DNA of 64,000 bases. Source: an uncultured Candidatus Bathyarchaeia archaeon (lineage in GTDB: Archaea > Thermoproteota > Bathyarchaeia > RBG-16-48-13 > CAYWPD01). The notes under the pieces are model-generated. The model saw only the letters and a program-made list of their open reading frames with translations, did no database searches and was not told the DNA's origin. Made by a program: the position numbers and the translations under genes. The DNA lies in the NCBI GenBank assembly GCA_964460055.1, contig CAYWPD010000001.1, forward strand, positions 1,376 through 65,375, written 5' to 3'. How positions within the stretch are numbered: position 1 is the stretch's first letter; each line of letters opens with the position of its first letter. Positions 1,457 through 39,385 of the stretch are shown one piece after another.

Positions 1457-2410
1457 TCACAGAACTTGGCCAAGGCATGGATCTGTTAGCAAGTCATAGC
1501 ATAAGTGGCACCTATTCACGTAGTTGTCGCGCCGCTTTGAACCGAGAAGTCTCTGAAGGCCTAAGGGTCCCTCAGCGCTGAGCGTTCTGAACAATGGGCG
1601 GTGACTTGCCTCCTCGATGAGCCTCCTCAATTTGTTGTTTTTTACGTTTCCTATCACAGCTGTGTCTGTTGATGCCGCCGCGGAGCAGCATGGAAGAACA
1701 TTCCCCGAAGGTGCTATGCCTACATCGCGGAGAATGGCCCGACACGGTCCCTCGAAGGAGCCGTTGCTGACGAGCCACTCTTCTCTTGGGATTTCCATTG
1801 CTCTGCCTATCGGAATGAATCCCGTCTCGATAGCTAGGGCGACAGGATGGTCCTTTGGTGACCCTGCCCCTATGATTCGGATGTCTTTGTCTTCTAGCAG
1901 TCTAGTGACCTCTCCTACCCTTAATCTGCTTGATTTTGCTGCAGCGCACATGATGATTATCTTTAGCCCAAGCTTTTTCGCCGCTTCGTAGCAGTTGCGG
2001 ACTCGATCAAATGGGATGTGGCGTTGATGGAAATCGTCGGCGCTTATGTTGATCGCATCGAGTCCGGCATCTACGAGCTTCTTCAATATCCTCTCGGCTT
2101 CTTCCTTCGTTGTTGCCCAGAAGCAATTCGTGACGCACTCTGTGTGAAATCCTCTACTGGCTGTGTAGCTGACGAGTTCTAGGAGTGTCTCCGGGAGCAA
2201 GAACGGTTCCCCACCCGTGAGACTGATCCATTCAACAGTCGGGATCTCCAGAGCTTGGTCGATGTAGTCAGCGGCTTCAACCAAGGCCATCTTAGCCTTC
2301 TTGTCCGGACCACAACCAAACCAACAGTGGCTACATGTCACGTTGCACTGCTCTGTAAGGAGCAAAGCCACCCGAAAGGTTCCAAACGGATCTTCCACGT
2401 GTGCTAACAT
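1457..2410 (-). CDS. radical SAM protein with C-terminal SPASM/twitch-like cysteine cluster
   Basis: The N-terminus carries CNVTCSHC, a CxxxCxxC radical-SAM cluster motif, followed by a GGEPFL glycine-rich SAM-binding region. The C-terminus has extra cysteines (PCC, then CHLCYDLLTDPC) resembling a truncated SPASM or twitch auxiliary-cluster domain. It is 30 bp downstream of the M28 peptidase on the same strand. Confidence 0.8.
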   Translation of the reverse strand: MLAHVEDPFGTFRVALLLTEQCNVTCSHCWFGCGPDKKAKMALVEAADYIDQALEIPTVEWISLTGGEPFLLPETLLELVSYTASRGFHTECVTNCFWATTKEEAERILKKLVDAGLDAINISADDFHQRHIPFDRVRNCYEAAKKLGLKIIIMCAAAKSSRLRVGEVTRLLEDKDIRIIGAGSPKDHPVALAIETGFIPIGRAMEIPREEWLVSNGSFEGPCRAILRDVGIAPSGNVLPCCSAAASTDTAVIGNVKNNKLRRLIEEASHRPLFRTLSAEGPLGLQRLLGSKRRDNYVNRCHLCYDLLTDPCLGQVL

Positions 2411-2440: not shown

Positions 2441-4324
2441 CTAGATGGCGGCTTTAAACTTCGCCAGTGTGTCCTTTATGAGCTCGTTGGCTAGGTAGAG
2501 TTCGTCCTCAACAATGTTCTTTTGTCTTTGGAGCTTTGTCAGCATGAACTTGAACTCTGGTGACTGTGGTAGAGACATCTCCGCGAGCTTTAGCATTCCA
2601 TAGATCCGGGGGAATGGTGTAGCTCCGAAGGTTTCCATGGACATCTGCTCCGTCCTTTCTGCGTCTGAGTGGGCTACGAGGTTGATGTGTCTCGATACCC
2701 ACATGATGCACCGGTTCAGTTCCTCCAGCATCTCATCAGTTGCTGCCCCATCCACCGCCTTCCTCACAGTGCCCTCCAGCCTCTCTGCCAACTCCCGAAA
2801 TTCTCTGGCCCTCTCAATGACTGAATTGATATTGAAATAGAAACTGATCTTGCCAGCCCCAGCTTGAAGGTCTTCAAGTATCTTGAGCATGGCGTCAGCA
2901 TATGGGACGAAGTTCATGGGCAGGACTGGGCAGTTCGTAACCTTGAAGATGAAGTTGAGGTTCACCTTCACATCTGTGCCAAGGATGTCTATATCGCCAT
3001 GCTCGATGGTTTCGTAGGGCGTATGCCACCACCAACCGCCGCCCGAGTAGTTCACAAAGGGATCATACAGATCCTTGGGACGAGCTGAGATGGTGCTTGC
3101 ATGAGGAAGTCCTGTCCCCCAGAAACTGTGGTCTCCAGCCCGACTCGGCCAATGGGAGCCTTCGACCTTTACGCCCGCAACCGACGCTATGCTTTCAGTA
3201 ACCAACTCCTGCAATTCACCTATAGGGGCCTCTCTGTAGGTGGTGGCTCCCTCAGTTCCAGGCGAATCGATGTTGAAGAAGGCAGTACAGTAATACCGCA
3301 GCTCGTGCCAGAAAGCGTCATTGTACCAAGTTGAACCACCATAGCGCCCTATCTCATGAGCAGTCCAGAATGCGAACCGAATGCTCCGTTTGAGCTTCTC
3401 ACTGTGCCCGTTGAGGACGCGCGCCAGTTCGAGGATGGCTACATTACCAGAGGCGTTGTCTACAGCGCCGGGTGAGAAAGGTGGTGTATCAACATGGCCA
3501 TTCACCAACATGAACTTCTCCGGATCTCTCACCCCTCTAATCTCGGCGACCAAGAGTGGCAACTTCTTCCATCCAGTCTCCACGATGGAGGTGACATGAG
3601 CGCGCATGTTTCCCTGCTTCGCGAGAACCTTCAGCCGCTGACCATCTCTATTAGACACGTGGACTATGGCCGAGATCCGCTGGACTAAGTCTATGCTGTC
3701 GATGGTCGGATTTCCCGAAACGGAGAAGTCAGCGCGTTGGTGGCATATCGTCGGCATGAACGAGTCTTGTTCGATGACAATGAGGCCCTTGACGCCCATA
3801 TTTTGTAGCTTTAACAACAGTGCGCCTTGAAGCCCCATCCAGTCACCAGAAGTCTTCTGCTCCGCCAGTACGATTTTTCCACGGCAATCTATTCTGCCGA
3901 TTTGCTCTGGGTCTATGTAGATGACTTCGCCTTCTATGCCCTCAGGCCCGGTCGTCCCTACCTGACGGTAAGGTGTGCATTGAACCTCGACCATCTCCGG
4001 AGACAGTACCTCGAGTCTGGCCAACTTGGGTTCGCTGATGTAAGCTTCGTATCGGAGCACCTGTGGTTTGAGGCCGTATTCCTCGAGCTTCGATTTCAGG
4101 AACTGAATGGCCTTTTCCTCTTGTTGACTACCGGAGGGGAGAGGGGTCAGCTCCATGAGGCTCTTCCAGTTCCTTTGCAACTCTTCCTTGGAGACTTCAC
4201 CTTCAAGCTCAGCTAGGAGCTCTTTATCTTCGTCTGTGAGCCAGATCATGAAAATACCTCGATAATGGTTCCTCTCGAAAGGAGGGGTATAAGATTTGTT
4301 GGCACTGTCGCTGTCCCTGCGCAT
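2441..4324 (-). CDS. M28 family metallopeptidase (aminopeptidase-like, with PA-type insert)
   Basis: Conserved M28 zinc-ligand regions are present: NGHVDT, DNASGNVAILELARVL and FAFWTAHEIG. There is no N-terminal signal peptide. An internal Met at 4249 preceded by a GAGGU Shine-Dalgarno-like element may be the true start. Confidence 0.72.
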   Translation of the reverse strand: MRRDSDSANKSYTPPFERNHYRGIFMIWLTDEDKELLAELEGEVSKEELQRNWKSLMELTPLPSGSQQEEKAIQFLKSKLEEYGLKPQVLRYEAYISEPKLARLEVLSPEMVEVQCTPYRQVGTTGPEGIEGEVIYIDPEQIGRIDCRGKIVLAEQKTSGDWMGLQGALLLKLQNMGVKGLIVIEQDSFMPTICHQRADFSVSGNPTIDSIDLVQRISAIVHVSNRDGQRLKVLAKQGNMRAHVTSIVETGWKKLPLLVAEIRGVRDPEKFMLVNGHVDTPPFSPGAVDNASGNVAILELARVLNGHSEKLKRSIRFAFWTAHEIGRYGGSTWYNDAFWHELRYYCTAFFNIDSPGTEGATTYREAPIGELQELVTESIASVAGVKVEGSHWPSRAGDHSFWGTGLPHASTISARPKDLYDPFVNYSGGGWWWHTPYETIEHGDIDILGTDVKVNLNFIFKVTNCPVLPMNFVPYADAMLKILEDLQAGAGKISFYFNINSVIERAREFRELAERLEGTVRKAVDGAATDEMLEELNRCIMWVSRHINLVAHSDAERTEQMSMETFGATPFPRIYGMLKLAEMSLPQSPEFKFMLTKLQRQKNIVEDELYLANELIKDTLAKFKAAI

Positions 4325-4464: not shown

Positions 4465-5091
4465 TTGAGAATTTCCGTAATAGTTCCAATCACCGGTTTG
4501 AATGAAGATGGCCTCGCTGAAAGAGTGAAGGTGCTGAACTCCATCAAAAGGCCTGATACCGTGATAGAGTTTTACAGAAGCGTTTCTGGACCGCCTGCGA
4601 TCGAGACGCGCGTAGACCATGATCTCGCCGTGCCCGAGATCCTGAGACTGGTTAAGGAAGCTGAGAACAAGGGTAGTGACGCAGCCATAATTTGGTGTGC
4701 CGGTGATCCCGGCCTCGAATCTTCCAGAGAGCTTGTCGACATTCCGGTAGTCGGTCCGAGACAAGCCTCATTCTCAATCGCCATGAACCTAGGCAGCAAC
4801 CCTACGGTACTGCCGCCTCCGTTACCCGTTCTTGAGCTGCGAAAGGATCTGGAGAAGACGATGCGTCTGGCCGAGAAGGCTGCAAGAGACTTGATGCGGA
4901 GCAGCAACTCGGATGTCTTGATTCTTGGCTGCATGGGGCTCTTCGGCCTGGCTAGGAAGCTTAGTATCAATCTGGGGATTCCTGTGATCGATCCTGCGGA
5001 GGCCGCTCTCAGCATGGCGGAGACTCTAGCGCACCTCAAATTGAGGCACAGCAGGCTCACCTATCCGAAGTACGAACCTCCTTCTAGATGA
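4465..5091 (+). CDS. Asp/Glu/hydantoin racemase family protein
   Basis: The roughly 208-aa size, an N-terminal IxVIxP motif and two conserved Cys (WCAGDPG and LGCMG) are positioned like the catalytic pair of hydantoin/Asp-Glu racemases. Confidence 0.6.
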   Translation: MRISVIVPITGLNEDGLAERVKVLNSIKRPDTVIEFYRSVSGPPAIETRVDHDLAVPEILRLVKEAENKGSDAAIIWCAGDPGLESSRELVDIPVVGPRQASFSIAMNLGSNPTVLPPPLPVLELRKDLEKTMRLAEKAARDLMRSSNSDVLILGCMGLFGLARKLSINLGIPVIDPAEAALSMAETLAHLKLRHSRLTYPKYEPPSR

Positions 5092-5560
5092 CGCCTAGGA
5101 TTCAACTCCCGTCCCCGCCTTTTGGGATGAATTTCAATACTGTCGGCGGGAATTGACCTCTTTTATTCGTGTCTTCTGAAGCGTCTGATGTCGTCAGAGC
5201 CACAGACATACTCGAGGCCTGTTTCGATGAGTGAGCTGGCTCCTTCGACGTTTTTGGCAACTTTGCAGACGTATTCGTCATCCTTAGACCATATGAGCTG
5301 TGTATGGACCAAGATGTGGCGCGCGGAATCACGATGGGCTGGACCGAAATTAAGCCGAAATGAGGTCAAGTCCACTAGCGTGCACTAGATCTTCGAGCAA
5401 TCGCGTGCTTTCGCTAGGGATATCGGAAGACATGAAGCGCACGCGGGGGTTTTCATTCTAGTTTTCGCAGGATCTTCGCATCTGTCGTCCACGTAGTCGG
5501 GGAGAGAAGGCTTCAGTTGCGCGCGCTCAAAGAGAGAATGTGTGCGGGAAAACAAACGCT

Positions 5561-6655
5561 TCAGATCTGTAGAAAAGTCTGGATGAGCCTTGCGATCAGC
5601 ATTGCGGCAACCGAAGCCGTGATCAATGCGAGCTTTCCTATTAGTGGGTTCTCAATCGGCCAAGTCCTAACAGTCATGAGTTTCCTTTCTACAGTTTCCA
5701 ACGTCAATAGCCTGATCATGTTCTGGTCATCCTTCTCACCTGTTTCTTCGATGCGGCTAATGAGTTCTGACAATAGCTTATTTGTCGATGCGATTTCGGC
5801 CCTTTTCGCTTCGAGCAGCCTATTGTGAGTACTCACCAACGGCGCTATGAATAGTGTTATCCCGACAGGAACTAGGACGAGCATAAAAATCACGTTTACC
5901 ACAGATGTCTGGCCTGCTAATCCGCCAAGAATCATCTGCCCCGCAAAAAGAGTCAATCCCAAGAAATATGCCGATAAAAATGAAAAGGCCAGGGACCCTA
6001 ATTTCCTAGTCCCTAGCGTTGGATCCTCGTGATAAGATTTGAGCTTGAGGTTCTGCTTTCCAAATCGATAAAGTCCCAGTAGAGATGCGCAATATAGCCA
6101 CAGTATGGAGCCAAACATCACGGAACGAACGAGAGAACGGAGAATGTAAATTGGAGTGCTAAGAACAGTCAGCTCACCTTTGCCTACCAGCTCTGGGACG
6201 GATGTCGCGTAGACAAATAAGAAGACGGACATTATTACCAGCTGAGGAAAATATTCGGAAACGATATTGAAAATTCTGCGCACGTCCTTTTCTCCGTTTG
6301 GAGCCAGAGATATCAGCTCTGGTTCAGCTTTGACCAAACACATTCCAAGATAACGTATGATGAAAGCTACATAAAAAAGGAAAACGTACCAAAGAACGTT
6401 GCCTGCTAGGGAATACCAGTTGGACTGGACTGCCGCCACGAGTCCGAATTCTTCTGCATTCGTCGATATGAAAGTTTGATATAAGGCACCTATGGCATTG
6501 TGTGACACTGAGTACAGGTAAAGGAAATTCCCAAGTGGCCCAGCGAAAGCCGCAACGAAGATGGTGCCAAGCACGGATGGTAGATGTGAAAAAACAAGCG
6601 TTTTTTCGAGCAGTGTTGGACGAAAGCTATCTGTCTTTTTCTTCGTGGAACTCAC
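5561..6655 (-). CDS. polytopic membrane protein, uncharacterised (paralog A)
   Basis: A 364-aa ORF with multiple hydrophobic helices. It shares architecture with the adjacent 6807..7877 ORF, including a central LKLK(S/P)..ED motif and a C-terminal TWP(I/F) motif followed by a final helix. Confidence 0.6.
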   Translation of the reverse strand: MSSTKKKTDSFRPTLLEKTLVFSHLPSVLGTIFVAAFAGPLGNFLYLYSVSHNAIGALYQTFISTNAEEFGLVAAVQSNWYSLAGNVLWYVFLFYVAFIIRYLGMCLVKAEPELISLAPNGEKDVRRIFNIVSEYFPQLVIMSVFLFVYATSVPELVGKGELTVLSTPIYILRSLVRSVMFGSILWLYCASLLGLYRFGKQNLKLKSYHEDPTLGTRKLGSLAFSFLSAYFLGLTLFAGQMILGGLAGQTSVVNVIFMLVLVPVGITLFIAPLVSTHNRLLEAKRAEIASTNKLLSELISRIEETGEKDDQNMIRLLTLETVERKLMTVRTWPIENPLIGKLALITASVAAMLIARLIQTFLQI

Positions 6656-6806
6656 TTTCCTTTAATTCTTATGTCTGTTTGGAGCTTGATTTGCATTTGT
6701 TCGTGAACCTGCTCGGTTTGGGTCTGCGTATTTCTAACATCTGCGAACTTTGTTTTTGAGGTGGGCAAGTTGTCCACAACTGAGCTCATTCTGGGCTGAA
6801 TCATCT

Positions 6807-7877
6807 TCACAAGTTCATAACAACTGTAAGTATGTTAGCTAGCAATATCGCTGTCACGGAAAGCAGAATCGTGAGCATGTGTCCTAGTACCCCTGTGTCA
6901 AAGGGCCAAGTGGGGATTCTCTCGAGTCTCTTTTCCATAAAATCCATCAACAGCAATTTCTGGATGCAGTTGGGATTCTTCCCTATCTTTGTTTCGCCGT
7001 CCACAGACGAAATTTGCAGAGTCCTACGTTCTTCTAGGAGTTTATGCCTCTCGAGCTCCTTTTGCTCGACCATTTTTCTGCGAAAAACATTGATAGTGAG
7101 TAGGAATGCAATCAATCCGAAAACCACCAGGGTCAACTCAAATGCGAGGTTCACAGCCGTCGGAGTGATTTCAACGCCGGAAGCCAAGATTCCGAGCCCT
7201 CGCAAACCTACAGCTCCAAAGTACACTAGAACTAGAGCGAGAGAAATCGAACCGATTGGACCAAGGCCAAAGAGAGAGTCTTCTGAGGAGGGTTTCAACT
7301 TCATCGATTCTTTTGCAAGTTTGCGAAGACTCCAGACTGAACTGAAGAATAGCCATATTCCTGTTCCTCCTGCAAAGTAGAGTGTGACTTGCGAAAGCAC
7401 GACATATACCGAGCTGAAGCTCCCCAAAGATAGAGCAATCATCTTGTAGGCACTTGGCGCAAAACATGCCCCGATTATGGTTGTTGTCGCAAGTGCACCA
7501 ATTCGACTCGAAACGATGCGGAAATCCTTATCGAATGCTTCTTCTCCGGCTAAGAGCAAGGGTGAAAGTGCGGTTCGCGCCTTCACTAGTTGCCGTCGGA
7601 AATACCTTACGAAATAGAAGAGGTAGAACATGAAGCCCCCATACGCTATAGTCCAGTAGAACACGATAGCACGCCAGTAGCTTTCTGAACCAGTTACGGT
7701 TCCAGCGATAGAGAACGTCTGGGCGAGATTGTAGGAATCAAGGTATCTTGTCAACAAATAACCTGGGAATCCAAGCGTCAGAGTAAGAAGAATACAGCTA
7801 GCAGTGTAGGGGAGGGGTATGAAAGTCACAAATCCCTCGAAGAGGGTCTCTGTCACAGGCTCTCTCGAACCCTTCAC
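6807..7877 (-). CDS. polytopic membrane protein, uncharacterised (paralog B)
   Basis: A 356-aa ORF that is a tandem paralog of 5561..6655: same strand, 150 bp apart, with similar helix layout and conserved short motifs. Confidence 0.6.
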   Translation of the reverse strand: MKGSREPVTETLFEGFVTFIPLPYTASCILLTLTLGFPGYLLTRYLDSYNLAQTFSIAGTVTGSESYWRAIVFYWTIAYGGFMFYLFYFVRYFRRQLVKARTALSPLLLAGEEAFDKDFRIVSSRIGALATTTIIGACFAPSAYKMIALSLGSFSSVYVVLSQVTLYFAGGTGIWLFFSSVWSLRKLAKESMKLKPSSEDSLFGLGPIGSISLALVLVYFGAVGLRGLGILASGVEITPTAVNLAFELTLVVFGLIAFLLTINVFRRKMVEQKELERHKLLEERRTLQISSVDGETKIGKNPNCIQKLLLMDFMEKRLERIPTWPFDTGVLGHMLTILLSVTAILLANILTVVMNL

Positions 7878-8067
7878 TGAAAGCGTGCCTAGCCATTCTC
7901 TGAGTCCCGTATTGACGCCACTCCCGGTGGTTCTTGACCAGAAAAGTATTTAAATCTTCCCACATTGGAAAGAGATCTCTCACATTTGCGGACAATTCGC
8001 ACGTTTCGCTGGCAAGATATTTCCAAAATGTTAAATACCCGCGTTTCGATCTGGAATCAGAGGAAAT

Positions 8068-8631
8068 ATGCCTAATAGACTGGACGAACTTGACCTGAAG
8101 ATCATTCGACAGCTGCAAATTGATGCCAGAGCCTCGGTAACAGAGTTGGCTGAGAAAGTAGAGTCGTCTCGTCCTACGACGACAAATAGATTGAAGCGGT
8201 TACTGGACGAGGATCTGATTCTCATAAGGGGAGGTTTGAATCTTCGACAATTTGGCTTCAAAGTTGCACAAGTCGGTCTGGAGGTTCGAACCGACAACGC
8301 TAGAAAGAAAATCGAGAGCCATCTAAGGAACTGCCCCAGAGTCTTGGACATCTTTAGAACTCCCGAGAAGGCGAACATTCACTTGAACCTATGGGGAGAG
8401 GACGATCAAACGATCAACTCGACAATAGAAAGTTTTCGCGATCAGCAAAATGTAGGCATAGTCTACACTCGCTACCTGGGAACCCCTATTCACGGAGATA
8501 TCCCCGTTCATGTTGAAACGAGAAAGAATGATGAAACTCCATGCGGCAGGAAATGTAGTGGATGCCACAGCTATCAAAATGCATGGTGCAGAGGTTGTCC
8601 ATCGTCATCAGACTACAAAACTTTCTTCTAA
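8068..8631 (+). CDS. Lrp/AsnC family transcriptional regulator with Cys-rich C-terminal extension
   Basis: N-terminal HTH_AsnC pattern (LDELDLKIIRQLQIDARASVTELAEKV) is followed by a RAM-like domain. A roughly 40-aa tail, CGRKCSGCHSYQNAWCRGC, gives CxxxCxxC...CxxC. Confidence 0.8.
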   Translation: MPNRLDELDLKIIRQLQIDARASVTELAEKVESSRPTTTNRLKRLLDEDLILIRGGLNLRQFGFKVAQVGLEVRTDNARKKIESHLRNCPRVLDIFRTPEKANIHLNLWGEDDQTINSTIESFRDQQNVGIVYTRYLGTPIHGDIPVHVETRKNDETPCGRKCSGCHSYQNAWCRGCPSSSDYKTFF

Positions 8632-8797
8632 ATGTCTAAGGAGGCCAGGCGTGCTCCGAGACTTCCTAAGATACTTTGCGCGCATGCCACATTTCGCGAG
8701 TATCGACGAAAGGCCAACTCAAGACGTGTCTCCGACGTACTCGATCTCTTGGACGCCTAAACGTAGGGCAGAATGAAAAAACAGAAGAGCCCCAGTC

Positions 8798-10408
8798 CTA
8801 GGACTGCCTCCTTCTTAGAACCATGCCTGCTCTCGCGCCTATATGCTCTCCATTTTCTACCGCAGCCTCACCGTTGACTATTACATAGCGGATGCCCTGA
8901 GGATACCGATGTGGGTCTTGGTATGTTGCAAGATCCAACACCGTATCAGGGTCGAAGATTGTTACGTCGGCCTGCATTCCTTCGGCCAGGAGCCCACGGT
9001 CGAGTAGCCCAAGTCTACGAGCCGGCAGTGAGGTCATCTTGCGGACTGCTTCCTCAAGCCGCAGGATCTTCTTATCGCGTATGTACCTGCCTAGAACCCG
9101 TGGGAAGGTTCCGTAGTTTCGGGGATGAGGCTTTCCAACATGGAGTTTTCCATACGGGGCATAACTGCTTCCGTCCGTCCCTATCATTGAACCGGGATAT
9201 CGAAGCACCGTTTCGACGTCCTGCTCATTCATCTCAAAGATCACTATCTGGGCGACGCCTTTGCTCTCCACGAGCAGATCGAAGGCAGTGTCGATTGGAT
9301 CCCTGTCTCTCAGCTTTGCGATCTCGGCGACGCTCTTTCCTTCCAGTGATCTGTCTGGGTCAAACTGTGAGATGATTATGTTCTCCCATCCGGCCTGCCT
9401 AGCTAAGTCTTCCCATCTGGGTATGCCTTCTATTATCTCGTGTTTCAGTCTCGATCTGATTTTCTTATCGCCCAGTCTGCTCACTAGGTTCGAAAGCCCT
9501 TCTTCATGAGCCCAAGTCGGAATACAGGCACTGAGGTCCGTACTTCCTGCCGTATACGGGTACACATCGCAGGTGACGTCAACTCCTCTCTTGCGTGCCT
9601 CCTCGATCATCCGTAGAGAATCGTTTACCTTGCCCCAGTTCTCGCTCCCCGCCGCCTTGTGATGCGATATCTCCACTGGCACCCCGGCTCTTTCTCCGAT
9701 CGCTATTGCCTCGTCCACAGCTTCAAGAAGGTAGTTGCTTTCATTTCTGATGTGACTGGAATAGAATCCTCCGTATCCTGATACGACTTTGCATAGTTCA
9801 ACAAGTTCTTCTGTCTTTGAGTATGAGCCTGGTGCGTATATCAGTCCTGAAGAGAGTCCTCGAGCGCCATCCTTCATAGCCTCTCCGACAAGCCCCTTCA
9901 TCTCTTCCATTTCGACTTCGGTTGGACTCCGATTATCGTAACCCATCACGGCAATTCGCACAGTGCCGTGGCCTACCAGTGGGGCGACATTGACTGAGAT
10001 CTTTCTCTCTTCCAGAGTCCTCAGATAGTCTTCGAAGGATCTCCAAGCCCAGTTGACCTCTTCTGCTAGCGGCATGCAGTTCTTCTTCAGAAGGTCCAGT
10101 CTGTCCTCGCGTATGGGTGCGAGTGTTGAACCACAATTTCCTAGAACCTCTGTGGTAACTCCTTGTCTGATCTTGCTTTCTGCCAAGGGGTTTATGAGGA
10201 GATGGAGGTCCGAATGGCTATGCATGTCGATGAAGCCTGGTGCAACTATGAGGCCGGAGCCGTCTATTGTGAGATTAGGCTCGGCTCCGTGGAAAGGGCC
10301 TATTCCTGAGATTTTGTCGGATTCGATCAGAACATCAGCCTTAAACCACGGATTCCCGGTTCCGTCGACGACGAACCCATTCTTAATCAGAACGTCTCCC
10401 ATCACCAT
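8798..10408 (-). CDS. N-acyl-D-amino-acid deacylase (D-aminoacylase) family amidohydrolase
   Basis: The ORF has a metal-binding GFIDMHSHSD motif, is about 536 aa long, and carries the glycine-rich C-terminal region typical of D-aminoacylase-type amidohydrolases. Confidence 0.68.
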   Translation of the reverse strand: MVMGDVLIKNGFVVDGTGNPWFKADVLIESDKISGIGPFHGAEPNLTIDGSGLIVAPGFIDMHSHSDLHLLINPLAESKIRQGVTTEVLGNCGSTLAPIREDRLDLLKKNCMPLAEEVNWAWRSFEDYLRTLEERKISVNVAPLVGHGTVRIAVMGYDNRSPTEVEMEEMKGLVGEAMKDGARGLSSGLIYAPGSYSKTEELVELCKVVSGYGGFYSSHIRNESNYLLEAVDEAIAIGERAGVPVEISHHKAAGSENWGKVNDSLRMIEEARKRGVDVTCDVYPYTAGSTDLSACIPTWAHEEGLSNLVSRLGDKKIRSRLKHEIIEGIPRWEDLARQAGWENIIISQFDPDRSLEGKSVAEIAKLRDRDPIDTAFDLLVESKGVAQIVIFEMNEQDVETVLRYPGSMIGTDGSSYAPYGKLHVGKPHPRNYGTFPRVLGRYIRDKKILRLEEAVRKMTSLPARRLGLLDRGLLAEGMQADVTIFDPDTVLDLATYQDPHRYPQGIRYVIVNGEAAVENGEHIGARAGMVLRRRQS

Positions 10409-10414
10409 TTTCTC

Positions 10415-12076
10415 CTATTCATTCTCTTGTGCTTCGAAAGAATTGACCTGTCTAGGTTTCTGATAGACTATTTTTCCCCCGACGATGGTCACGTCGACCT
10501 CGACATTCTTTATCCGCTCGGTTGGTATGATGGTTATGTCCTCATGTAGGACAGTGATATCTGCCAATTTTCCTTGCTCTATTGAACCCTTCAGATCCTC
10601 TTCAAAGGAGGCGTATGCTCCATCGATCGTATATGCTCTCAACGCGTCGACAACACTGATGCACTCACTCTCATCAAGGACCATTCTGGCCATCGTCTTC
10701 CGCGTGATCATTCCGTAGATACCTAGCATTGGGTTCTCCGAGCAGACTGGGAAGTCTGAATGTCCAGGCGCTCTAATGCCGAGGGATTTCAAGGTTCTGT
10801 GTGGGAGCACATTCCTCATTCTGCCTTCGCCTAGGTTCGCTAGATAGGCGTCTCCGAGATCATAGATGAAACCGGCCGCCGACATGTTCAACACATCGAG
10901 ACGCTTCAGCCTCGCCGCAATGCTTGAAGTGACATAACAGCAGTGCTCTATCCTATGCCGGTGATTCTTCTTGGGCAGAGCTTCCAGAGCTTTCTCTATG
11001 GCATCTAGGCATGCATCTATCCCTCTGTCTCCGACTCCATCCAATCCGACGCGGAGACCTGCCTTGTGAGCTTGAAGAACCATGGAGTTCATCACCTCCG
11101 GCGGATAGAGAATGAATCCTCGGTTTTCCGGTTCCCCCAAATATGGCTCATAGTATGCAGCTGTTCTGCCGCTTGTGCTGCCATCAAAGACCCATTCGAT
11201 GCCGATTACCTTGATCCACTCGTCTCCAAAACCCGTTTCCAGCCCCGTCTTTATCAGCGCTGAGAGCAGTCCCTCCTCCCCTCCATCCATCATCAGGCCA
11301 ACTCTGATCGGCAGTTCTCCTTCCCTGCGAAGTTCTTGGAAAGCCTTCAAATGTAGCGAGCCGGCGGTCGAGGCTTGTATACTTGTTATACCGCATCGCG
11401 TAAGTTGCTGGAAGCAGAGTTTCAGGCCTTTCTTGATGTCTTCTAGCGTGTAAGGTGGGATCGAGTCTCGGACGAGTTCTTGGGCCCTTCCTCTCAAAAC
11501 TCCCGTGAGTTCTCCATCGGATGCTCTATCTAGCTTTCCGGAGGGTGGATCTTTGGTCTCTCTTCCAACCTCTGCCTTCTCGAACGCCAAAGTGTTGCCG
11601 ACGCTCACATGCCCATCTACTCTTCTGACGTATACTGGGTTGCATGGGGCCGCTTCATCCAGCTCCCACCTTGTGACGTGCCTATTCTCTTCGAGTTTGG
11701 TATTGTCGTAGCCCCAGGCTATTATCCAAGTGCCTGGCTCTGTATGCTTCGCCTTCTTCGAGATCTCAGTCTTCAGATCTGCGATGGATTTGACTTTAGG
11801 GTATCTGCAGTCCACCTCACTCAGCAGCCTTGTGGCGAGATGGGTTGGATGTGTATGGGAATCCACTATTCCAGGAATCGCACATCTTCCCGAGAGATCG
11901 ATCTTCACTGTCTTAGGCCCTGCCGATGATAGAGCCTCATCGCTAGTCCCGACGAAAGTGATTCTGTCGGACTTGATGACAACAGCTTGGGCGATGGTAT
12001 CGTCCTCATCGAGAGTAACTATCTTCCCGTTGAAGAGAACTAAGTCGGCGCTCACACGATCTGTTGTCGCGATCAT
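10415..12076 (-). CDS. amidohydrolase family protein (Amidohydro_3 / YtcJ-like metal-dependent hydrolase)
   Basis: A 553-aa ORF with an N-terminal IPGIVDSHTHP metal-binding motif, a C-terminal HSDFPV and a GKLADITVL-type terminus typical of Amidohydro_3 enzymes. Confidence 0.7.
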   Translation of the reverse strand: MIATTDRVSADLVLFNGKIVTLDEDDTIAQAVVIKSDRITFVGTSDEALSSAGPKTVKIDLSGRCAIPGIVDSHTHPTHLATRLLSEVDCRYPKVKSIADLKTEISKKAKHTEPGTWIIAWGYDNTKLEENRHVTRWELDEAAPCNPVYVRRVDGHVSVGNTLAFEKAEVGRETKDPPSGKLDRASDGELTGVLRGRAQELVRDSIPPYTLEDIKKGLKLCFQQLTRCGITSIQASTAGSLHLKAFQELRREGELPIRVGLMMDGGEEGLLSALIKTGLETGFGDEWIKVIGIEWVFDGSTSGRTAAYYEPYLGEPENRGFILYPPEVMNSMVLQAHKAGLRVGLDGVGDRGIDACLDAIEKALEALPKKNHRHRIEHCCYVTSSIAARLKRLDVLNMSAAGFIYDLGDAYLANLGEGRMRNVLPHRTLKSLGIRAPGHSDFPVCSENPMLGIYGMITRKTMARMVLDESECISVVDALRAYTIDGAYASFEEDLKGSIEQGKLADITVLHEDITIIPTERIKNVEVDVTIVGGKIVYQKPRQVNSFEAQENE

Positions 12077-12629
12077 TCTCTCACCCGGCCCATGTGATAT
12101 CAGATTGAAACTTTGGATTGTGTGGTTGCGCTGAGCTCATAATGGTTGAGGTTTCCAATTTGTCCCGACCGAAGCAGTGCCCTGACCGCTCTGCTGATGA
12201 CGTTATTCACCGCTCTTCTTCCAGAAGTATCTGCAGTTGATACTGTTGAGGAAAATTCTTCACCCGGGTGTTTTCGGTGCTCTGTCTGGGTGAACGAATC
12301 GGGCCCTGATAGTTCAGTTCGCGATGGCGCCTCCTACAGAGTATTCCGGCTGATAGTTCTCTGTTTCAAAGGATGACAGGCCAAGCTGAAAAGTAGCTGA
12401 ATCTGGCAAATGCTTTTTGGGTGAGTATTCTCAGTCTAGTGTTGGAGATGAAGCAGCCGTCCCAGACGGACCTCTTGGCGAAGAGAGATGGCGACCTCGT
12501 GACGAGCTGATCCACCTTTCTTAAGGAGAAAGAACAGGCCCTTCAAAACGTCTTTTGAATTTCTGTTCCAATCGAAATTGTCGCTCAATCGGATATCGGC
12601 TTGATCATTGTCTTGAGAAGAGTCGCACC

Positions 12630-13778
12630 CTATAGCTCAGTCCCGGGTATACGTCTTTCTCGACTTTGGAAAAACAGTAGGAATGTGGAAAACGATGTCA
12701 AGAGCGCGAACAGCAAGAAAGGAGACCTAAGATCGACTCCTAGGAGAGGAGTGACCAAGATCGGCATAGCGGGAAACGATAGGTCGATGACGCCGTCAAA
12801 GAAGGCCATGTATAGACTCTCCATGCCCGAGGGTGCCGATTTCGCTATCATGGCACCGGACTGGACGAAGACCGCTCCAAGGGTCACACCTAGCCATCCC
12901 ATCCAGACGGCCATCAGGACAGGGTTCTTCGAGATGTAAAGCAAAAAGAAGGGTGGCACGCAAGACAGTGCAAAGAAGGCGGCCAAGAATCGGCCTCTCC
13001 ATTTCTCGAATACGACTCCGAGAGGGATCTGAAAAAGCAGGAACGTTACGAAATAGGAAGAAAGAATCAATCCTATCGTGACATTCGAGAACCCTTCGGA
13101 TGACCCGATGAGAGGAATGACCAATTCAAAGCCTGCAAATCCAATTTCTACGAGAAAGACCGCTAGACATACCATTACTACGGAGTATCTGGAGAGCAGG
13201 TCTCTAATGGAGTGTCTGAAGGTCTCTCTTGCGGCGACTGTTTTCTTCTCCGAAATCAGTATCATCGTGGGAATGCCGGCTGCACTAACCAGCGCACTCA
13301 GGAAGAATGGATACGAAAGATTCAGCGACCCAAGGATTCCTCCCAATATGGGTGCGATCATCATTCCAAATCCTTGGAAAGTCCTGTAGATCGAAAAACT
13401 CTTCGACTTCTCTCCCATCTGAGCGATCAATCCCAAAACGGCTGGTCCAAAGATCCCAAGCCCTATACCCTGGATGACACGGAAGACTACAAGTTGAAAG
13501 AAGGTCTGGGCGACCCCACATAGTAGGGCAGAGGCTCCATAGGTTGCCAAACCCAATGACCCAAGTCTCTTTTTGCCGTACTTATCGCAAAGATGCCCGG
13601 TAAACATCTCAAGTAAGGCCCAAGTTAGAGAATAAGCGGAAAAAAAGGCCCCTATTTCCGCATACGTCACCCCATACTTCTCGACGTATTGAGGGAGGAT
13701 TGGCGACACTACGAACAGTCCGAAGGTACTGAGGAATCCCAAGACAGATGTGCCCAGTAGCGCAATCTTTCTTTCCAA
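12630..13778 (-). CDS. MFS transporter
   Basis: A 382-aa protein with about 12 hydrophobic helices and glycine-rich loops characteristic of MFS transporters. Confidence 0.78.
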   Translation of the reverse strand: MERKIALLGTSVLGFLSTFGLFVVSPILPQYVEKYGVTYAEIGAFFSAYSLTWALLEMFTGHLCDKYGKKRLGSLGLATYGASALLCGVAQTFFQLVVFRVIQGIGLGIFGPAVLGLIAQMGEKSKSFSIYRTFQGFGMMIAPILGGILGSLNLSYPFFLSALVSAAGIPTMILISEKKTVAARETFRHSIRDLLSRYSVVMVCLAVFLVEIGFAGFELVIPLIGSSEGFSNVTIGLILSSYFVTFLLFQIPLGVVFEKWRGRFLAAFFALSCVPPFFLLYISKNPVLMAVWMGWLGVTLGAVFVQSGAMIAKSAPSGMESLYMAFFDGVIDLSFPAMPILVTPLLGVDLRSPFLLFALLTSFSTFLLFFQSRERRIPGTEL

Positions 13779-13925
13779 TTAGGAACAATCCGGCGCTTCT
13801 GCCCTAGTGTGGAGCGGGCTACAGGATCAAGTTAGGCTCTTTCTGAGCGTTTCGAACTTTTAGGGATATTCTTCGCCCCTGCTCCAGTACCGAGACTCGG
13901 CTCTTTTTGGTCTCTGATAATCAGA

Positions 13926-14693
13926 CTATTTCGTTTTTTCAAGGAACTTCGTCAGGACGTATAGGATTCGATCCACTGAAGCCTCTATCAGCTTCTCACC
14001 AAGCTCTTTGGAAGCGTAGGTTGGATCTCCGACAGAACCCGTGTTTGTGTAGTCTTCGAAGTATCTTGTTGGATTGGGTTGGATCTTCTCGCTGTATCCC
14101 TTCGGTTCCAGACTGATCTCGGGCGTTCTTACAAAGGGCCTTAGAATCCTGTCCATCCTGACTGTCTCCGGCAGTAGATACATAGCCATGCTGGTCTCGA
14201 TCTCGCAGGCATGCCCCCAGAACTCGGACTTCGCCTCCTTGGCTTCTATGTCTCGCGTGAATCTCCACCAGTCAATCACCAGAATACTCCGTTCCAGTTC
14301 ATTCTGGAGCTCTGTCGCGGCCACCCACAGGGCTTGATCATTACCCCCATGCCCGTTCAGCAAGACGATCTTTCTCGCGCCATGCCTAGCTAAGCTCCTG
14401 CAGATGTCGCTTATCACTCCGATGAATGTCTCCGGGGAGAGCGTAATTGTCCCCGCAAAGTGCATATGGTGTTCGGATAGGCCGTATGAGACTCGTGGAG
14501 CCACAAGGATTCTGAGGCTCGACTTCGTTTTCTCGACGATCTTCTTGGCAACCTCGTGGGTGAGGGCAGTATCATTCTGTAGCTCCATATGGTGGGAGTG
14601 CTGTTCGTGGCTTCCGATGGGAACGATGACGTAATCGGCGGACTTGATCGCTTCGTCAGCCTCTTGCCATGTCATCCTCTCAAGCTCGAACAT
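13926..14693 (-). CDS. creatininase-family amidohydrolase
   Basis: Creatininase-family motifs are present: IVPIGSHEQHSHH, LLNGHGGN and a WGHACEIETS-like Glu/His region. It is 255 aa long. Confidence 0.75.
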   Translation of the reverse strand: MFELERMTWQEADEAIKSADYVIVPIGSHEQHSHHMELQNDTALTHEVAKKIVEKTKSSLRILVAPRVSYGLSEHHMHFAGTITLSPETFIGVISDICRSLARHGARKIVLLNGHGGNDQALWVAATELQNELERSILVIDWWRFTRDIEAKEAKSEFWGHACEIETSMAMYLLPETVRMDRILRPFVRTPEISLEPKGYSEKIQPNPTRYFEDYTNTGSVGDPTYASKELGEKLIEASVDRILYVLTKFLEKTK

Positions 14694-14817
14694 CTAATCG
14701 CCTCTGACTCAAGTCGGGTTTGACTAGAATGTGTGGAGGTTCAATAATACGCCTTTTCTCATGCGGATCTGATGGGAACCTTTTTCTCGAAGGGCAAGAG
14801 GTCTCTTCTCGAAACCG

Positions 14818-15666
14818 GTGAATAGAGGGTTGCTCAGCTCTAGGGTTGCAATCGCGAGGGGGACTGATCCGTCAGAGATGGTGCGTCAAGCAATCACTCT
14901 TCTAGATGCGGGGAGAGTGGTTAAAGGTGGAGACAGGGTTTTGATCAAGCCCAACTGCGTGGCTGACCGGACACCTTTGACGGGAATTACCACTGACCCC
15001 CGAATTGTGGAGGAGCTGATACTCTATGCGAATGAGGAAGGAGCTGAAGAGGTTGTGGTTGCAGACGGGGGATCCGTGGATACCGAGAGGGTCTTCGAGA
15101 CGACTGGGCTGAAGCGACTTGCCAAGAAGCACGGGGTCAGACTCGTCGATCTTAACAGAGACGAAAAAGTCCGAATCCAAATTCCCAATGCGATGGCCTT
15201 GACAGAGGTTGATGTTGCCAAGACGGCTCTTGACTGCAACTGCATCATCAATGTCCCGAAGCTGAAGGTTCACCACATAGCCCTCGTGACGTTGGCGATA
15301 AAGAACCTGATGGGTGTCATCCTGCCGAAGAGCATCATACACGCGCAGCTGCATGAGAAGCTCTCTGATCTGGCGACCTTCTTCAAGCCTAGGCTCAATG
15401 TGATCGATGGAACCGTCGGATCGGAGATCGACGAGGTGAATGGAAGACCGGTTCAAATGAATCTCATCATAGTCGGCGTGGACATCGTGGCCACAGATTC
15501 GGTCGGCGCAGCAGTGATGGGGATCAGTCCGCAGAGCGTCAGACACATTGCCCTATCGGAATCGAGAGGAGTAGGTTGTGCAGATCTCGATCAGATCCAA
15601 GTGGTAGGGAATAGTATCGAGAAGGTCAAGAAGAATTTTGAGTTGCCCCCTGAGTTCAGAGGCTAA
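14818..15666 (+). CDS. DUF362 domain protein
   Basis: The layout (VAIARG...V.QA..LLD...VKGGDRVLIKPN...IINVPKLKVHH) matches the DUF362 family architecture. It is divergently transcribed from the creatininase-family gene. Confidence 0.62.
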   Translation: MNRGLLSSRVAIARGTDPSEMVRQAITLLDAGRVVKGGDRVLIKPNCVADRTPLTGITTDPRIVEELILYANEEGAEEVVVADGGSVDTERVFETTGLKRLAKKHGVRLVDLNRDEKVRIQIPNAMALTEVDVAKTALDCNCIINVPKLKVHHIALVTLAIKNLMGVILPKSIIHAQLHEKLSDLATFFKPRLNVIDGTVGSEIDEVNGRPVQMNLIIVGVDIVATDSVGAAVMGISPQSVRHIALSESRGVGCADLDQIQVVGNSIEKVKKNFELPPEFRG

Positions 15667-15810: not shown

Positions 15811-16608
15811 GTGGTCGTGGAATTGACCTTGAAGAAATCAGCAATAGCCATGGCTGCGATCGTCCCAGTGCTCATGATAGCCGCCGCTTTCGCTGCAGTC
15901 GCGATGACCTCAACCAACCTGCAGGTCAAGTGGCCCAGCAACTATCCATACGTGTATGCCGCAGTGAATGGCGTCAACGGGACATTGAGTGTCTCAGGCA
16001 CAGGAGTGGCGTCCATCACGCCGGACAGGGCAGAGCTATCGATGGGGCTCTTCACTGAAGGCTTCACAGCAAAGGACGCTGTGGACAAGAACGCGGCGAT
16101 CTTCGACGACATACTGAGAGCTTTAGAGGAGCAGGGCATCTCGAGAGATAACATTGCGACCTCGTGGTACAACATATATCCGGTCTACGAATACGCCGGA
16201 TCGAGGCCGATACTTGTAAGCTACAAAGTCGAGCACCAGATCTCCGTCGTCGTCATCGAGGAGGACGTTGACAATCTGGGAAGGAAGGTTGGACGGGTAA
16301 TTGACGCTGCTGTCGGAGCCGGAGCTAACCAGATGTACGGGATACAGTTCACGGTCTCGGATGAGAAAGTGGAAGAACTGAAAGATCAGGCGCTGGCAAG
16401 CGCTGTGAGAGACGCTGCAAGAAAAGCTCAGATCATGACAGAAGCACTGCAGGTTACGATCAAAGGCGTGGTCTCAATAAGTGAGTCCGGTGGCTATTGG
16501 CCGGTAGTGCCGATCTACAGGGGCTACGCGGAGTCGGCAGGAACGCAAGTGCTTCCAAAGATGTTTGAAGTGACGGCAAGTGTCAGCGTGGTCTACGCAA
16601 TAGCCTGA
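15811..16608 (+). CDS. SIMPL (DUF541) domain protein, membrane-anchored
   Basis: An N-terminal hydrophobic anchor is followed by a SIMPL-like two-repeat pattern (ITPDRAELSMGL... and later Y..YAES at the C-terminus). It is 265 aa long. Confidence 0.6.
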   Translation: MVVELTLKKSAIAMAAIVPVLMIAAAFAAVAMTSTNLQVKWPSNYPYVYAAVNGVNGTLSVSGTGVASITPDRAELSMGLFTEGFTAKDAVDKNAAIFDDILRALEEQGISRDNIATSWYNIYPVYEYAGSRPILVSYKVEHQISVVVIEEDVDNLGRKVGRVIDAAVGAGANQMYGIQFTVSDEKVEELKDQALASAVRDAARKAQIMTEALQVTIKGVVSISESGGYWPVVPIYRGYAESAGTQVLPKMFEVTASVSVVYAIA

Positions 16609-17541: not shown

Positions 17542-17647
17542 CCCTCTATCACCGGTCTGACCTTGCGCTAATCAAGACGTTATGTCTTGCCCTAGTTGTG
17601 CTATGTAAGAGAAATTACATGAAGCAGATGATCAAGGCTTTTTCAGC

Positions 17648-18547
17648 TCAGGTTGGCGCCTTCTTCCTTACCTCTGTTTTCGCCAGGTCCTCGAGCAATG
17701 TGATTATGCTGGAATGGTCAAGGTCTCCTCGACCTGCGACCCTCAAGGCGCCGAACATCTCGTGCACGAGGCTGGTGATCGGAAGGGGCACTCCGAACTC
17801 TTTCCCGGTCGCCAACGCGATGCCCAAGTCCTTGTGATGGAGTCTGACCTTGAATCCAGGCTTGAAGTTGCGATCGAGCACGTTGGGTGCCCTAACCTCC
17901 AAGGCCCAGCATCTGGCTGCTCCCCCGCTTAATGCCTTTATGATCAATTCGGGGTCAACTCCTGCCTTGTAGCCCAAAACTAAGGCTTCGCCGACTGCTT
18001 CGAGAGTGAGAGCTACGACTATCTGGTTGCAGGCCTTGGCGACCTGTCCCATTCCGACATCGCCTACGTGCACTATATTCTTTCCGAGTGCTTGGAAGAT
18101 CTCGAGACATTCCTCGAACACCTCAGTCTTTCCTCCGACCATTATGCTGAGCGTGGCTTCGATGGCACCTTTCTCCCCTCCACTCACAGGCGCATCGAGC
18201 ATATCGACGCCCAGTGACGTGAGGTGACCTGCGATCTTCTTCGTTGTGATGGGTGAGATTGTGCTCATGTCGATCAGTATCGAATCGGTTTTGATTCCAG
18301 AGGAGACGCCGTTAGATCCCAGTACCACTTGCTCCACGTCAGGTGAGTCGGGGAGCATGGTGATGACGATGTCTGAGGATTCTGCGACTTCTCTTGACGA
18401 GTTTGCTGCACGCGCGCCGAGTCTTTCGAGCTCCACGATGGGTGGTCGACTTCTGTTGTATACTGTGAGTTGATACTCTTTCTTGAGCAGGTTCTTGGCC
18501 ATGGGTTTTCCCATGATTCCAAGTCCGATGAATCCAACTCTTTTCAT
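17648..18547 (-). CDS. NAD(P)-dependent 3-hydroxyisobutyrate / 2-hydroxy-3-oxopropionate reductase family dehydrogenase
   Basis: An N-terminal Rossmann GFIGLGIMGKPMAKNL motif, a conserved catalytic-Lys region and a length of 299 aa fit the MmsB/GarR family. Confidence 0.8.
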   Translation of the reverse strand: MKRVGFIGLGIMGKPMAKNLLKKEYQLTVYNRSRPPIVELERLGARAANSSREVAESSDIVITMLPDSPDVEQVVLGSNGVSSGIKTDSILIDMSTISPITTKKIAGHLTSLGVDMLDAPVSGGEKGAIEATLSIMVGGKTEVFEECLEIFQALGKNIVHVGDVGMGQVAKACNQIVVALTLEAVGEALVLGYKAGVDPELIIKALSGGAARCWALEVRAPNVLDRNFKPGFKVRLHHKDLGIALATGKEFGVPLPITSLVHEMFGALRVAGRGDLDHSSIITLLEDLAKTEVRKKAPT

Positions 18548-19869: not shown

Positions 19870-20655
19870 TTGGGCTCACACCCTCATAGCCGCTCCCAAG
19901 ATGTAATATCTAGATCCGCCCGATCATCTATGAGGGATGTACACGTGTCAATCTCGGACTCGGAGCTGAATGCTCTCAAGAACTTGGACACGCCGACGGT
20001 GGCCAATGCGATCGAGCTGTTTAACGTAAGGCCGAGGAATACGGGCTTCATGCGTCCCGAGGTTAGATCTATCTTCCCTGAGATGGGCGTAATGGTCGGA
20101 TACGCCTGTACCGCGACTATACAGGCTGATCAACCAGCCTCCAAGACTAGGCAGCTCCAAGTCTCCGATTACTGGGATAGCATACTTAGAGTGCCCAAAC
20201 CCCGAGTCCTTGTGATGCAGGATTTAGACAACCCCACTGGTGTTGGGTCCTTCTGGGGCGAAGTTCAGGCCAACATTCACAAGCGGCTCGGATGCGTCGG
20301 AGCGGTCACAAACGGTGGAGTTCGCGATCTAGATGAGATAGAAAGACTGGGATTCAATCTATATGCATCGCATGTGCTGGTCTCACATGCACACGTGCAT
20401 CTTGTGGATTTTGAGTCTCGAGTGAGAGTGGGCGGGCTCGTGATCTCGCAAGGAGACCTGATCCACGCGGACAGACATGGCGTGCAAATAGTCCCCCGCG
20501 AGATAGCTGGTAGGATCATAAAGGCCGCGGGCGAGATACGGCGACTGGAAGGTGAATTCATCGATTTCTGCAAGTCCAAAGAATTCTCGATTAACGAGCT
20601 GAAGATCAGGTTCCCAAAGCTGAGAGAGGCTATGTCTAGAATCGTTACAGACTAG
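19870..20655 (+). CDS. RraA family protein (4-hydroxy-4-methyl-2-oxoglutarate aldolase / RraA-like)
   Basis: A conserved G-x-V-x-N-G-G-V-R-D segment (VTNGGVRDLDEI) and the overall size match the RraA/MenG-like fold. The real start may be the internal Met at 19930. Confidence 0.68.
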   Translation: MGSHPHSRSQDVISRSARSSMRDVHVSISDSELNALKNLDTPTVANAIELFNVRPRNTGFMRPEVRSIFPEMGVMVGYACTATIQADQPASKTRQLQVSDYWDSILRVPKPRVLVMQDLDNPTGVGSFWGEVQANIHKRLGCVGAVTNGGVRDLDEIERLGFNLYASHVLVSHAHVHLVDFESRVRVGGLVISQGDLIHADRHGVQIVPREIAGRIIKAAGEIRRLEGEFIDFCKSKEFSINELKIRFPKLREAMSRIVTD

Positions 20656-39271: not shown

Positions 39272-39385
39272 TCTTGACTCACCCTTGTATCGAAGATCTT
39301 TGGTGCCTCTGGTATCATGCCTTCTTGGAGAAAAGATCTTGCCTGACTAGTGGGCCGAGGGCGATTGGATTCGAGATGGGCTTCC

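Follow-up and report, generated by a model that had tools for sequence, protein, structure and literature searches.

A D-aminoacylase-family enzyme among largely separate neighbour genes of a Bathyarchaeia archaeon

The bacterial hydantoin-utilization (hyu) gene clusters and the industrial 'hydantoinase process' combine a hydantoin racemase, a hydantoinase, and an N-carbamoyl-amino-acid amidohydrolase (carbamoylase). The same logic had been proposed for an 11-kb span (positions 4465-15666) of a 64,000-nucleotide stretch of archaeal DNA (contig CAYWPD010000001.1 of an uncultured Candidatus Bathyarchaeia archaeon; hereafter the window), which was described as a cluster enriched in enzymes that process D-amino acids and cyclic amides. 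Another described system is the PAB0086-PAB0095 region of Pyrococcus abyssi, where the gene for the D-stereospecific CubicO peptidase Pab87 lies near those encoding the D-aminoacylase PAB0090 and a dipeptide ABC transporter (PMC2651629). In 2009 this organism was proposed to scavenge the D-amino-acid peptides of bacterial cell walls (PMC2651629). In D-acylases, a mobile alpha/beta lid controls specificity (PMC12149444). We compared the span with these systems and read it, with modest confidence, not as a dedicated pathway cluster but as a set of independently transcribed neighbour genes of a peptide- and amino-acid-scavenging archaeon that includes one two-gene operon and a D-aminoacylase that would act on D-residue debris.

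The enzyme at the centre of this reading is a 536-residue amidohydrolase (8798-10408, minus strand; Amidohydro_3, 119.8 bits), the product of the second gene in the operon. It matched the D-aminoacylases KleDacyl of Klebsiella (PDB 9g5m, E = 2e-96) and of A. faecalis (1m7j, E = 3.7e-96) and the N-acyl-D-glutamate deacylase of Bordetella (3gip, E = 5.6e-87), each in two stretches that cover the D-aminoacylase barrel either side of the lid. All of the metal and catalytic residues are kept: H63, H65, the bridging C92, H219, H249/H250, and D412 correspond to H62, H64, C91, H216, HH, and D362 of KleDacyl, K251 is also aligned, and C92 and D412 align with Cys96 and Asp366 of AfaDacyl. The carboxylate-site (c-site) residues Y283 (in a YPY motif), S289, and R430 match Tyr279, Ser285, and Arg373 of KleDacyl, and the n-site Y191 matches its Tyr188. 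Residue roles for KleDacyl and AfaDacyl were taken from the literature (PMC12149444) and their positions mapped via the printed alignments. The best match among species-representative genomes, from Culexmicrobium, is 59% identical. Judged from its sequence, the protein is a well-supported D-aminoacylase-family enzyme and the only enzyme of the span with a well-supported activity class. This upholds the original prediction, which had called it N-acyl-D-amino-acid deacylase-like.

The sequence shows how the active site is built. H63, H65, C92, H219, and H249/H250 form a Cys-bridged binuclear metal centre with D412 as the general base, and the intact carboxylate pocket (Y283, S289, and R430) holds the substrate. 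The enzyme would then cleave an acyl or aminoacyl group from the nitrogen of a D-amino acid, either in N-acyl-D-amino acids or in short peptides ending in a D-residue. Such substrates may be imported as cell-wall or necromass debris, possibly via one of the MFS transporters, and the free D-amino acids released would be consumed by the aminotransferases and dehydrogenases encoded across the window.

The company that the enzyme's homologues keep in other genomes is consistent with such a role. We anchored 80 loci from species-representative genomes on the D-aminoacylase (43-59% identity; mostly Bathyarchaeia, Asgard, and other archaea, with a minority of bacterial metagenome-assembled genomes, MAGs) and 80 metagenome loci on the YtcJ-like protein encoded by the first operon gene (32-60% identity). 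The 160 loci, 158 of them distant after removal of the window's own contigs, were searched with the window proteins by tblastn and profiles. To count neighbours, open reading frames (ORFs) were clustered across the 80 D-aminoacylase loci, representatives were annotated, and their occurrences were counted by tblastn. S9 peptidases neighbour the D-aminoacylase gene in 10 of the 80 loci, M20 hydrolases in 7, Amidohydro_1 proteins in 6, and SBP_bac_5 peptide-binding proteins in 5. Proteins that join beta-lactamase and Pab87_oct domains (Pab87-like) were found in 4/80, M81/MlrC-like peptidases in 2/80, and a protein with the diaminopimelate (DAP)-epimerase fold (DapF-like) in 1/80. For example, MFS, D-aminoacylase, Pab87-like, and YtcJ-like genes follow one another in this order on one strand in two Asgard MAGs (L007, 370-7324; L008). 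Scavenging of D-amino acids from peptidoglycan debris, as originally suggested, is therefore reasonable for the D-aminoacylase clade on the strength of its peptidase neighbours and the P. abyssi precedent, but the hydantoin and cyclic-amide part of that suggestion is not supported. Furthermore, D-amino-acid scavenging from cell-wall debris is already in the literature (PMC2651629).

Gene order, taken from the ORF listing and Pfam scans, shows that the genes of the span are spread over both strands and make up at least five transcription units, as judged from coordinates, spacing, and orientation alone. All six proteins named in the original prediction are present at their positions according to Pfam; three genes that it had not mentioned (MemA, MemB, and an AsnC/Lrp-type regulator) occupy 5561-8631. 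Operon-like spacing was found only for the YtcJ-like gene (10415-12076, minus strand; 553 residues) and the D-aminoacylase gene, where 6 bp separate the stop of the former from the start of the latter. The MFS transporter gene (12630-13778, minus strand; PF07690, MFS_1, 150 bits) lies 553 bp upstream of this operon on the same strand. The racemase gene (4465-5091, plus strand) is divergent from that of an M28 metallopeptidase outside the span (2441-4324, minus strand; PF04389, 80 bits), and the creatininase-family gene (13926-14693, minus strand; PF02633, 235 bits) is divergent from the DUF362 gene (14818-15666, plus strand; PF04015, 169 bits), which is directly followed in gene order by a gene for a SIMPL-family protein (15811-16608, plus strand). 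No convincing archaeal TATA-like box was seen within 80 nt upstream of any of the genes. The MFS transporter showed weak likeness to drug-efflux and aromatic-acid NCBIfam models, all far under cut-off, and DUF362 had no significant PDB sequence match. The racemase, the MFS transporter, the creatininase-family hydrolase, and DUF362 probably have separate functions and share at most the same general scavenging lifestyle.

The grouping of these genes is not clearly beyond chance. Carbon-nitrogen (C-N) hydrolases account for 3 of the 9 span genes versus 6 of the 46 genes elsewhere in the window (one-sided Fisher p = 0.15), and the p-value reaches 0.047 only when the racemase is added post hoc to the set. 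The window also holds M28, M20 (ArgE/DapE type), Amidase, Asparaginase_2, Amidohydro_2, and ADI-like proteins, together with three aminotransferases, two saccharopine dehydrogenases, an ornithine cyclodeaminase, and PALP and alpha/beta-hydrolase proteins; because such amide and amino-acid genes occur elsewhere, the span is not exceptional in this stretch. The genes of the supposed enriched cluster are real, but their enrichment is not significant and the rest of the window is equally rich. The window reads as archaeal: it encodes a PAC2 proteasome-assembly chaperone, and its homologues come nearly all from archaeal MAGs. Named relatives of the PAC2 protein reach at most 59% identity and carry labels such as Nitrososphaerales, Methanocellales, and Thermoplasmatota. 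Contigs identical to the window occur in the JGI metagenomes 3300010324 and 3300010328, and a 70-kb contig from NCBI encodes the identical creatininase-family protein.

Comparison with a sister lineage, represented by contigs of up to 95 kb with racemase homologues at 78-79% identity, places the gene order in a broader context. The two lineages are ~77-90% identical, with a DNA backbone at ~77-83%. The sister order is MFS, M28, racemase, D-aminoacylase (79%), MFS, creatininase (87%), DUF362 (87%), SIMPL, HIBADH, HAD, and M20. This collinearity extends far past the span, so the shared order reflects the general synteny of sister species. The radical SAM, MemA, MemB, and AsnC-type genes are absent from the sister lineage, and an M28 gene also lies beside its racemase gene but encodes a paralogue (33% identical). 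The YtcJ-like gene survives there as a 38-residue C-terminal remnant, in syntenic position just upstream of the D-aminoacylase gene. Loss of the gene indicates that the YtcJ-like enzyme is dispensable for the role of the D-aminoacylase. At one sister locus (L163), we also saw syntenic protein-level remnants of YtcJ-like, DUF4097, and RraA-like genes (12853-12966, 17599-17805, and 20133-20249), which suggests recent gene decay in that lineage.

In more distant genomes the association dissolves. Of the 160 anchored loci, 0 contain the racemase family, and creatininase-family and DUF362 genes occur together in 1 (L081). In 4 of the 80 D-aminoacylase loci (L003, L007, L008, and L043) there is a YtcJ-like gene at a distance of up to 10 kb, never directly adjacent to the D-aminoacylase gene, and none of the 80 YtcJ-like anchors has a D-aminoacylase gene nearby. 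Five further racemases of the window protein's compact clade (47-53% identity) are surrounded by housekeeping genes or others without a link, and the M28 peptidase is the only neighbour family that recurs beside this clade (L171). Amidase genes next to racemase relatives (L170 and L174) were considered as partners and given no weight; a small ORF followed by a 463-residue amidase looks like GatC-GatA. For the creatininase-family protein, the nearest further relative (52%) is encoded alongside M24, AstE/AspA, and GGT genes and has no DUF362 neighbour. The original prediction had named conservation of the gene order in related genomes as its own check; with these counts, co-conservation of the six families fails, and the order is shared only with the syntenic sister lineage.

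Several observations weigh against reading the span as separate genes around a D-aminoacylase. The lid of the 536-residue enzyme, from the YPY to the NMDE-equivalent motif, spans ~105 residues versus ~60 in the bacterial enzymes and is ~45 residues longer than in KleDacyl. Because it is longer and was left unaligned by phmmer, no equivalent of the r-site residue (Leu298, Gln292, or Arg295 in the three structures) is identifiable, and the side-chain preference is not readable from the sequence. A carbohydrate de-N-acetylase (9kb1) also falls in the same family. Furthermore, in Culexmicrobium (L003, 6975-11623), the source of the best D-aminoacylase homologue, the gene immediately upstream of that for the D-aminoacylase encodes the DAP-epimerase-fold protein and has a YtcJ-like gene on its other side; the product is a two-cysteine epimerase, and the logic of racemase plus deacylase therefore recurs there in analogous form. 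Lastly, a Bathyarchaeota MAG (L081; JASFTK010000002, 430-5698) carries a tight co-directional array of M81/MlrC-like, D-aminoacylase, and creatininase-family genes and a gene for DUF362 fused to a 4Fe-4S ferredoxin domain, a hint that three of the genes named in the original prediction may truly be linked.

The longer lid and the de-N-acetylase matches bear on an alternative in which the in vivo substrate of the 536-residue enzyme is some other amide, so that it might be a carbohydrate de-N-acetylase of the PpOngB kind, and D-amino acids play no part in the region. The entries 9kb1 and 9kb3 ('carbohydrate de-N-acetylated protein', the depositors' name) match the enzyme at E = 1e-73, its score against PRK09061, the sole curated NCBIfam subfamily, is under cut-off (217 versus 340), and cross-reactivity has been noted in the superfamily (PMC12149444). 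However, the best matches are true D-acylases (E ~1e-96), and the bridging Cys and the Tyr, Ser, and Arg of the carboxylate site are all kept. The homologues also adjoin peptidases and peptide transporters rather than carbohydrate genes. We consider this alternative unlikely.

The L081 array is the strongest argument for a second alternative, which we regard as similarly improbable: that the D-aminoacylase, the creatininase-family protein, and DUF362 form a smaller module for an unusual peptide or N-blocked D-amino-acid substrate, with DUF362 supplying some further step. All genes of the array are on the same strand with gaps of 22-75 bp, and L081 is the only one of the 158 distant loci with either a creatininase-family or a DUF362 gene and has both. 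The three families are neighbours in the window and in the sister lineage too, and DUF362 and the N-terminal domain of LarA belong to one Pfam clan (PMC11770544). However, this is a single recurrence among 78 independent D-aminoacylase loci, and the L081 proteins, at 31-45% identity to those of the window, are family-level relatives rather than clear orthologues. In the window, the genes belong to separate transcription units at a distance of ~3.5 kb, where the YtcJ-like and MFS genes intervene, and the 52% identical creatininase relative has neither DUF362 nor a D-aminoacylase as neighbour. A broader version is very unlikely; here the three proteins would be a recurring archaeal module that degrades the D-residue or N-blocked peptides of bacterial necromass, DUF362, as a relative of the lactate-racemase clan, would carry out a new epimerase-type or redox step, and the compact racemase would act on a non-hydantoin substrate.

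Profile searches for the enzymes of hydantoin catabolism gave consistently negative results. Against the D-hydantoinase/dihydropyrimidinase model TIGR02033 (cut-off 393 bits), the 536-residue protein scored 46 bits and the 553-residue protein 22 bits, and the allantoinase and dihydroorotase NCBIfam scores of both proteins were similarly low. Their weak matches to hydantoinase-type models cover only the N-terminal beta-sandwich, and no other hydantoinase or dihydropyrimidinase candidate was found within the window. Nor was a carbamoylase: the only nearby M20 protein passes the ArgE/DapE deacylase model TIGR01910 (255 bits versus a cut-off of 218) and meets no carbamoylase model, and there is no CN_hydrolase protein. 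Both process-defining enzymes are therefore absent from the window. Genes for allantoin or hydantoin utilization were also lacking near the racemase and near its relatives in six lineages. With the creatininase-family protein likewise under its cut-offs (below), the hydantoinase and cyclic-amide logic of the original prediction is not supported, and an annotation as a cluster for hydantoin or cyclic-amide utilization should be avoided for this region.

Least likely of all is a single MFS-fed hydantoinase/D-acylase pathway, in which the racemase, a ring-opening amidohydrolase (YtcJ-like or creatininase-family), and the D-aminoacylase would process hydantoins, dihydropyrimidine-like cyclic amides, or N-acyl-D-amino acids: the racemase is nearest to allantoin/hydantoin racemases in sequence and fold with both cysteines kept, a genuine D-aminoacylase-family enzyme is present, and the genes all lie within 11 kb and are still neighbours in the sister lineage, but the window lacks the hydantoinase and the carbamoylase, the creatininase-family protein is under all subfamily cut-offs, the racemase gene lies on the opposite strand 3.7 kb off with three unrelated genes between and its family is missing from all 160 loci, and the YtcJ-like gene was lost in the sister lineage.

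The partner of the D-aminoacylase in the operon is, by its profile scores, neither a hydantoinase nor a dihydropyrimidinase. Its PF07969 (Amidohydro_3) match spans model positions 3-472 of 472 (341 bits), every NCBIfam subfamily score is below 45 bits versus cut-offs above 225, and its only PDB relatives are the uncharacterised 3icj (E = 9e-34) and 3igh. An alignment of 74 homologues (L083-L162) gave a clade-specific ligand pattern of H74, H76, E294, D346, H378, H439, and D441. Like the YtcJ-like amidohydrolases 3icj and 3igh, the protein keeps the HxH motif, the His of beta-6, and the Asp of beta-8. In contrast, 3icj has a Lys where the window clade has Glu, and Asp346 of the window clade occupies the position of the beta-5 metal-binding His of 3icj and of a more distant clade. 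The window clade also has a His (His439) two residues ahead of the beta-8 Asp; in the distant clade the pattern is reversed (His at beta-5, Gly here). The Asp346/His439 swap looks like a relocated metal ligand.

The creatininase-family protein also fell under all curated NCBIfam cut-offs, with 126 bits versus 235 for the creatininase model TIGR04448, 129 versus 172 for MftE, 94 versus 245 for IolN, and 21 versus 180 for ArfB. Alignment with 1j2t showed that the EQH, D, GH, and H...E motifs are kept (E30, H32, D41, H115, H161, and E166), and these residues may correspond to the binuclear metal ligands and the catalytic His of the superfamily. Gly117 replaces Glu122 of creatininase in the same alignment. 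Placement of the amidohydrolases in subfamilies, proposed earlier as a way to check the cluster, gave a well-supported D-aminoacylase family for the 536-residue enzyme and less precise placements for the 553-residue YtcJ-like and the creatininase-family proteins.

The racemase (208 residues; PF01177, Asp_Glu_race, 95.7 bits) is closest to allantoin/hydantoin racemases (PDB 3qvj, E = 1.3e-18), and no NCBIfam model matched it at E <= 0.01. The two catalytic cysteines noted in the original prediction are indeed present (C78 and C156) and are invariant across 56 homologues. Compared with the canonical allantoin/hydantoin racemases (~235-245 residues), the protein is 27 residues short where its second domain begins, a deletion shared exactly by a compact clade (P0001-P0037) of 201-219 residues and 43-100% identity. 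An AlphaFold2 model built on the homologue alignment (predicted local distance difference test, pLDDT, 96.3) has the two-domain Asp/Glu-racemase fold, and its top Foldseek matches are the allantoin racemases 3qvj and 5lg5 (template-modelling score, TM, 0.87-0.90). Sequence and model together make it plausible that the protein is a functional two-thiol racemase of a compact subfamily. The labels 'allantoin racemase' and 'creatininase' should not be read literally. Members of the compact clade are present in many metagenomes, one of them labelled Bathyarchaeia.

Downstream of the M28 gene, after a gap of 30 bp and on its strand, we noted a gene for a radical SAM/SPASM protein (1457-2410, minus strand). 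Among NCBIfam models, the protein comes nearest to the YydG peptide epimerases (E = 3e-30, 106 bits, well under the cut-off of 300).

The genes between the racemase and the operon code for two membrane proteins and a regulator. MemA (5561-6655, minus strand) and MemB (6807-7877, minus strand) are paralogues (27% identical, E = 1e-28) with no Pfam or NCBIfam match. The start codon of MemA is uncertain, and the JGI call gives 337 residues. MemB belongs to an uncurated family for which at least 400 cluster representatives matched at E <= 1e-3, most of them over the full length and ~350 residues long. Both proteins show roughly 5-8 hydrophobic segments followed by a polar stretch and a final hydrophobic segment. 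The AsnC/Lrp-type helix-turn-helix regulator (8068-8631, plus strand; PF13404, 52 bits) has a Cys-rich C-terminal tail and is under all NCBIfam cut-offs. Its gene faces that of MemB head-to-head and meets the D-aminoacylase gene tail-to-tail, which makes it more likely that it regulates the membrane-protein pair rather than the operon. A role as regulator of the amidohydrolase operon was rejected on this orientation and because the MemA-MemB-AsnC block is present or absent as a unit.

The gap between the operon and the MFS gene contains a 76-nt element (12443-12518) that is 100% identical in the sister lineage, with sharp borders and diverged flanks. It is single copy, and the next longest exact run shared with the sister lineage is 38 nt. 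Read on the plus strand, the element starts with UGGA-GAUGA and ends with CUGA-UCCA, which resembles the C/D boxes and terminal stem of an archaeal C/D-box small RNA. On the minus strand it can form a hairpin (z = -2.5). Rfam gave no match to the element, even in a permissive scan of the 553-bp gap, and Rfam and ARAGORN found nothing in the whole window. We consider the element a candidate C/D-box-like small RNA, its plus strand being inferred from the GAUGA...CUGA motifs. It is not part of the enzyme story.

Other parts of the window carry genes of related interest. The regions 36451-41672 and 57392-61900 encode an Amidase (under the GatA and AtzE cut-offs), an Asparaginase_2/beta-aspartyl-peptidase-like protein, an Amidohydro_2 protein, the two saccharopine dehydrogenases, the ADI-like protein, and the ornithine cyclodeaminase. 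A 490-residue ORF (26774-28246, minus strand) has no Pfam match, and its N-terminal two-thirds (27278-28243) are ~30% identical by tblastn to an M20-family hydrolase whose gene neighbours a D-aminoacylase homologue (L033). This ORF may code for a divergent M20-like enzyme.

Taken as a whole, the region holds new members of known families in an ordinary arrangement. If the D-aminoacylase assignment is true, the archaeon joins the lineages (MAGs labelled Bathyarchaeia, Asgard, and Culexarchaeia) in which the large-lid clade occurs amid peptide-degrading genes. This would fit the view that archaea of sediments recycle the D-amino acids of bacterial cell walls, an idea already published and no surprise. 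Our literature search for D-aminoacylases or hydantoin racemases in sediment archaea returned nothing relevant. The compact racemase clade, the variant metal-ligand pattern of the YtcJ-like protein, and the conserved 76-nt element may merit specialist attention.

The span's resemblance to the described systems is partial in each case. With hyu clusters it shares a two-cysteine enzyme of the hydantoin/allantoin-racemase type near metal-dependent amidohydrolases and a transporter. However, the hydantoinase and carbamoylase of those clusters were not found in this stretch. The racemase belongs to a compact variant, and its family did not co-occur with these amidohydrolases in any of the 160 anchored loci. 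The bacterial D-aminoacylases (KleDacyl, AfaDacyl, and 3gip) and the window enzyme have in common the amidohydrolase barrel, the HxH motif, the bridging Cys, the two His, the general-base Asp, and a carboxylate site with the YPY motif, a Ser, and an Arg; the window enzyme differs in being archaeal and in its larger lid. The P. abyssi region PAB0086-PAB0095 is similar by gene context only, as it too has an archaeal D-aminoacylase-family gene amid genes for the transport and metabolism of peptides and amino acids. Its pairing of a D-aminoacylase with a Pab87-like protein recurs in the 4 of 80 loci described above, and the two Asgard MAGs add MFS and YtcJ-like genes. In P. abyssi the partners are a Pab87-like S12 peptidase and a peptide ABC transporter, neither of which lies near the window gene, whereas the window D-aminoacylase is accompanied by a YtcJ-like amidohydrolase, MFS transporters, and M28 and M20 metallopeptidases.

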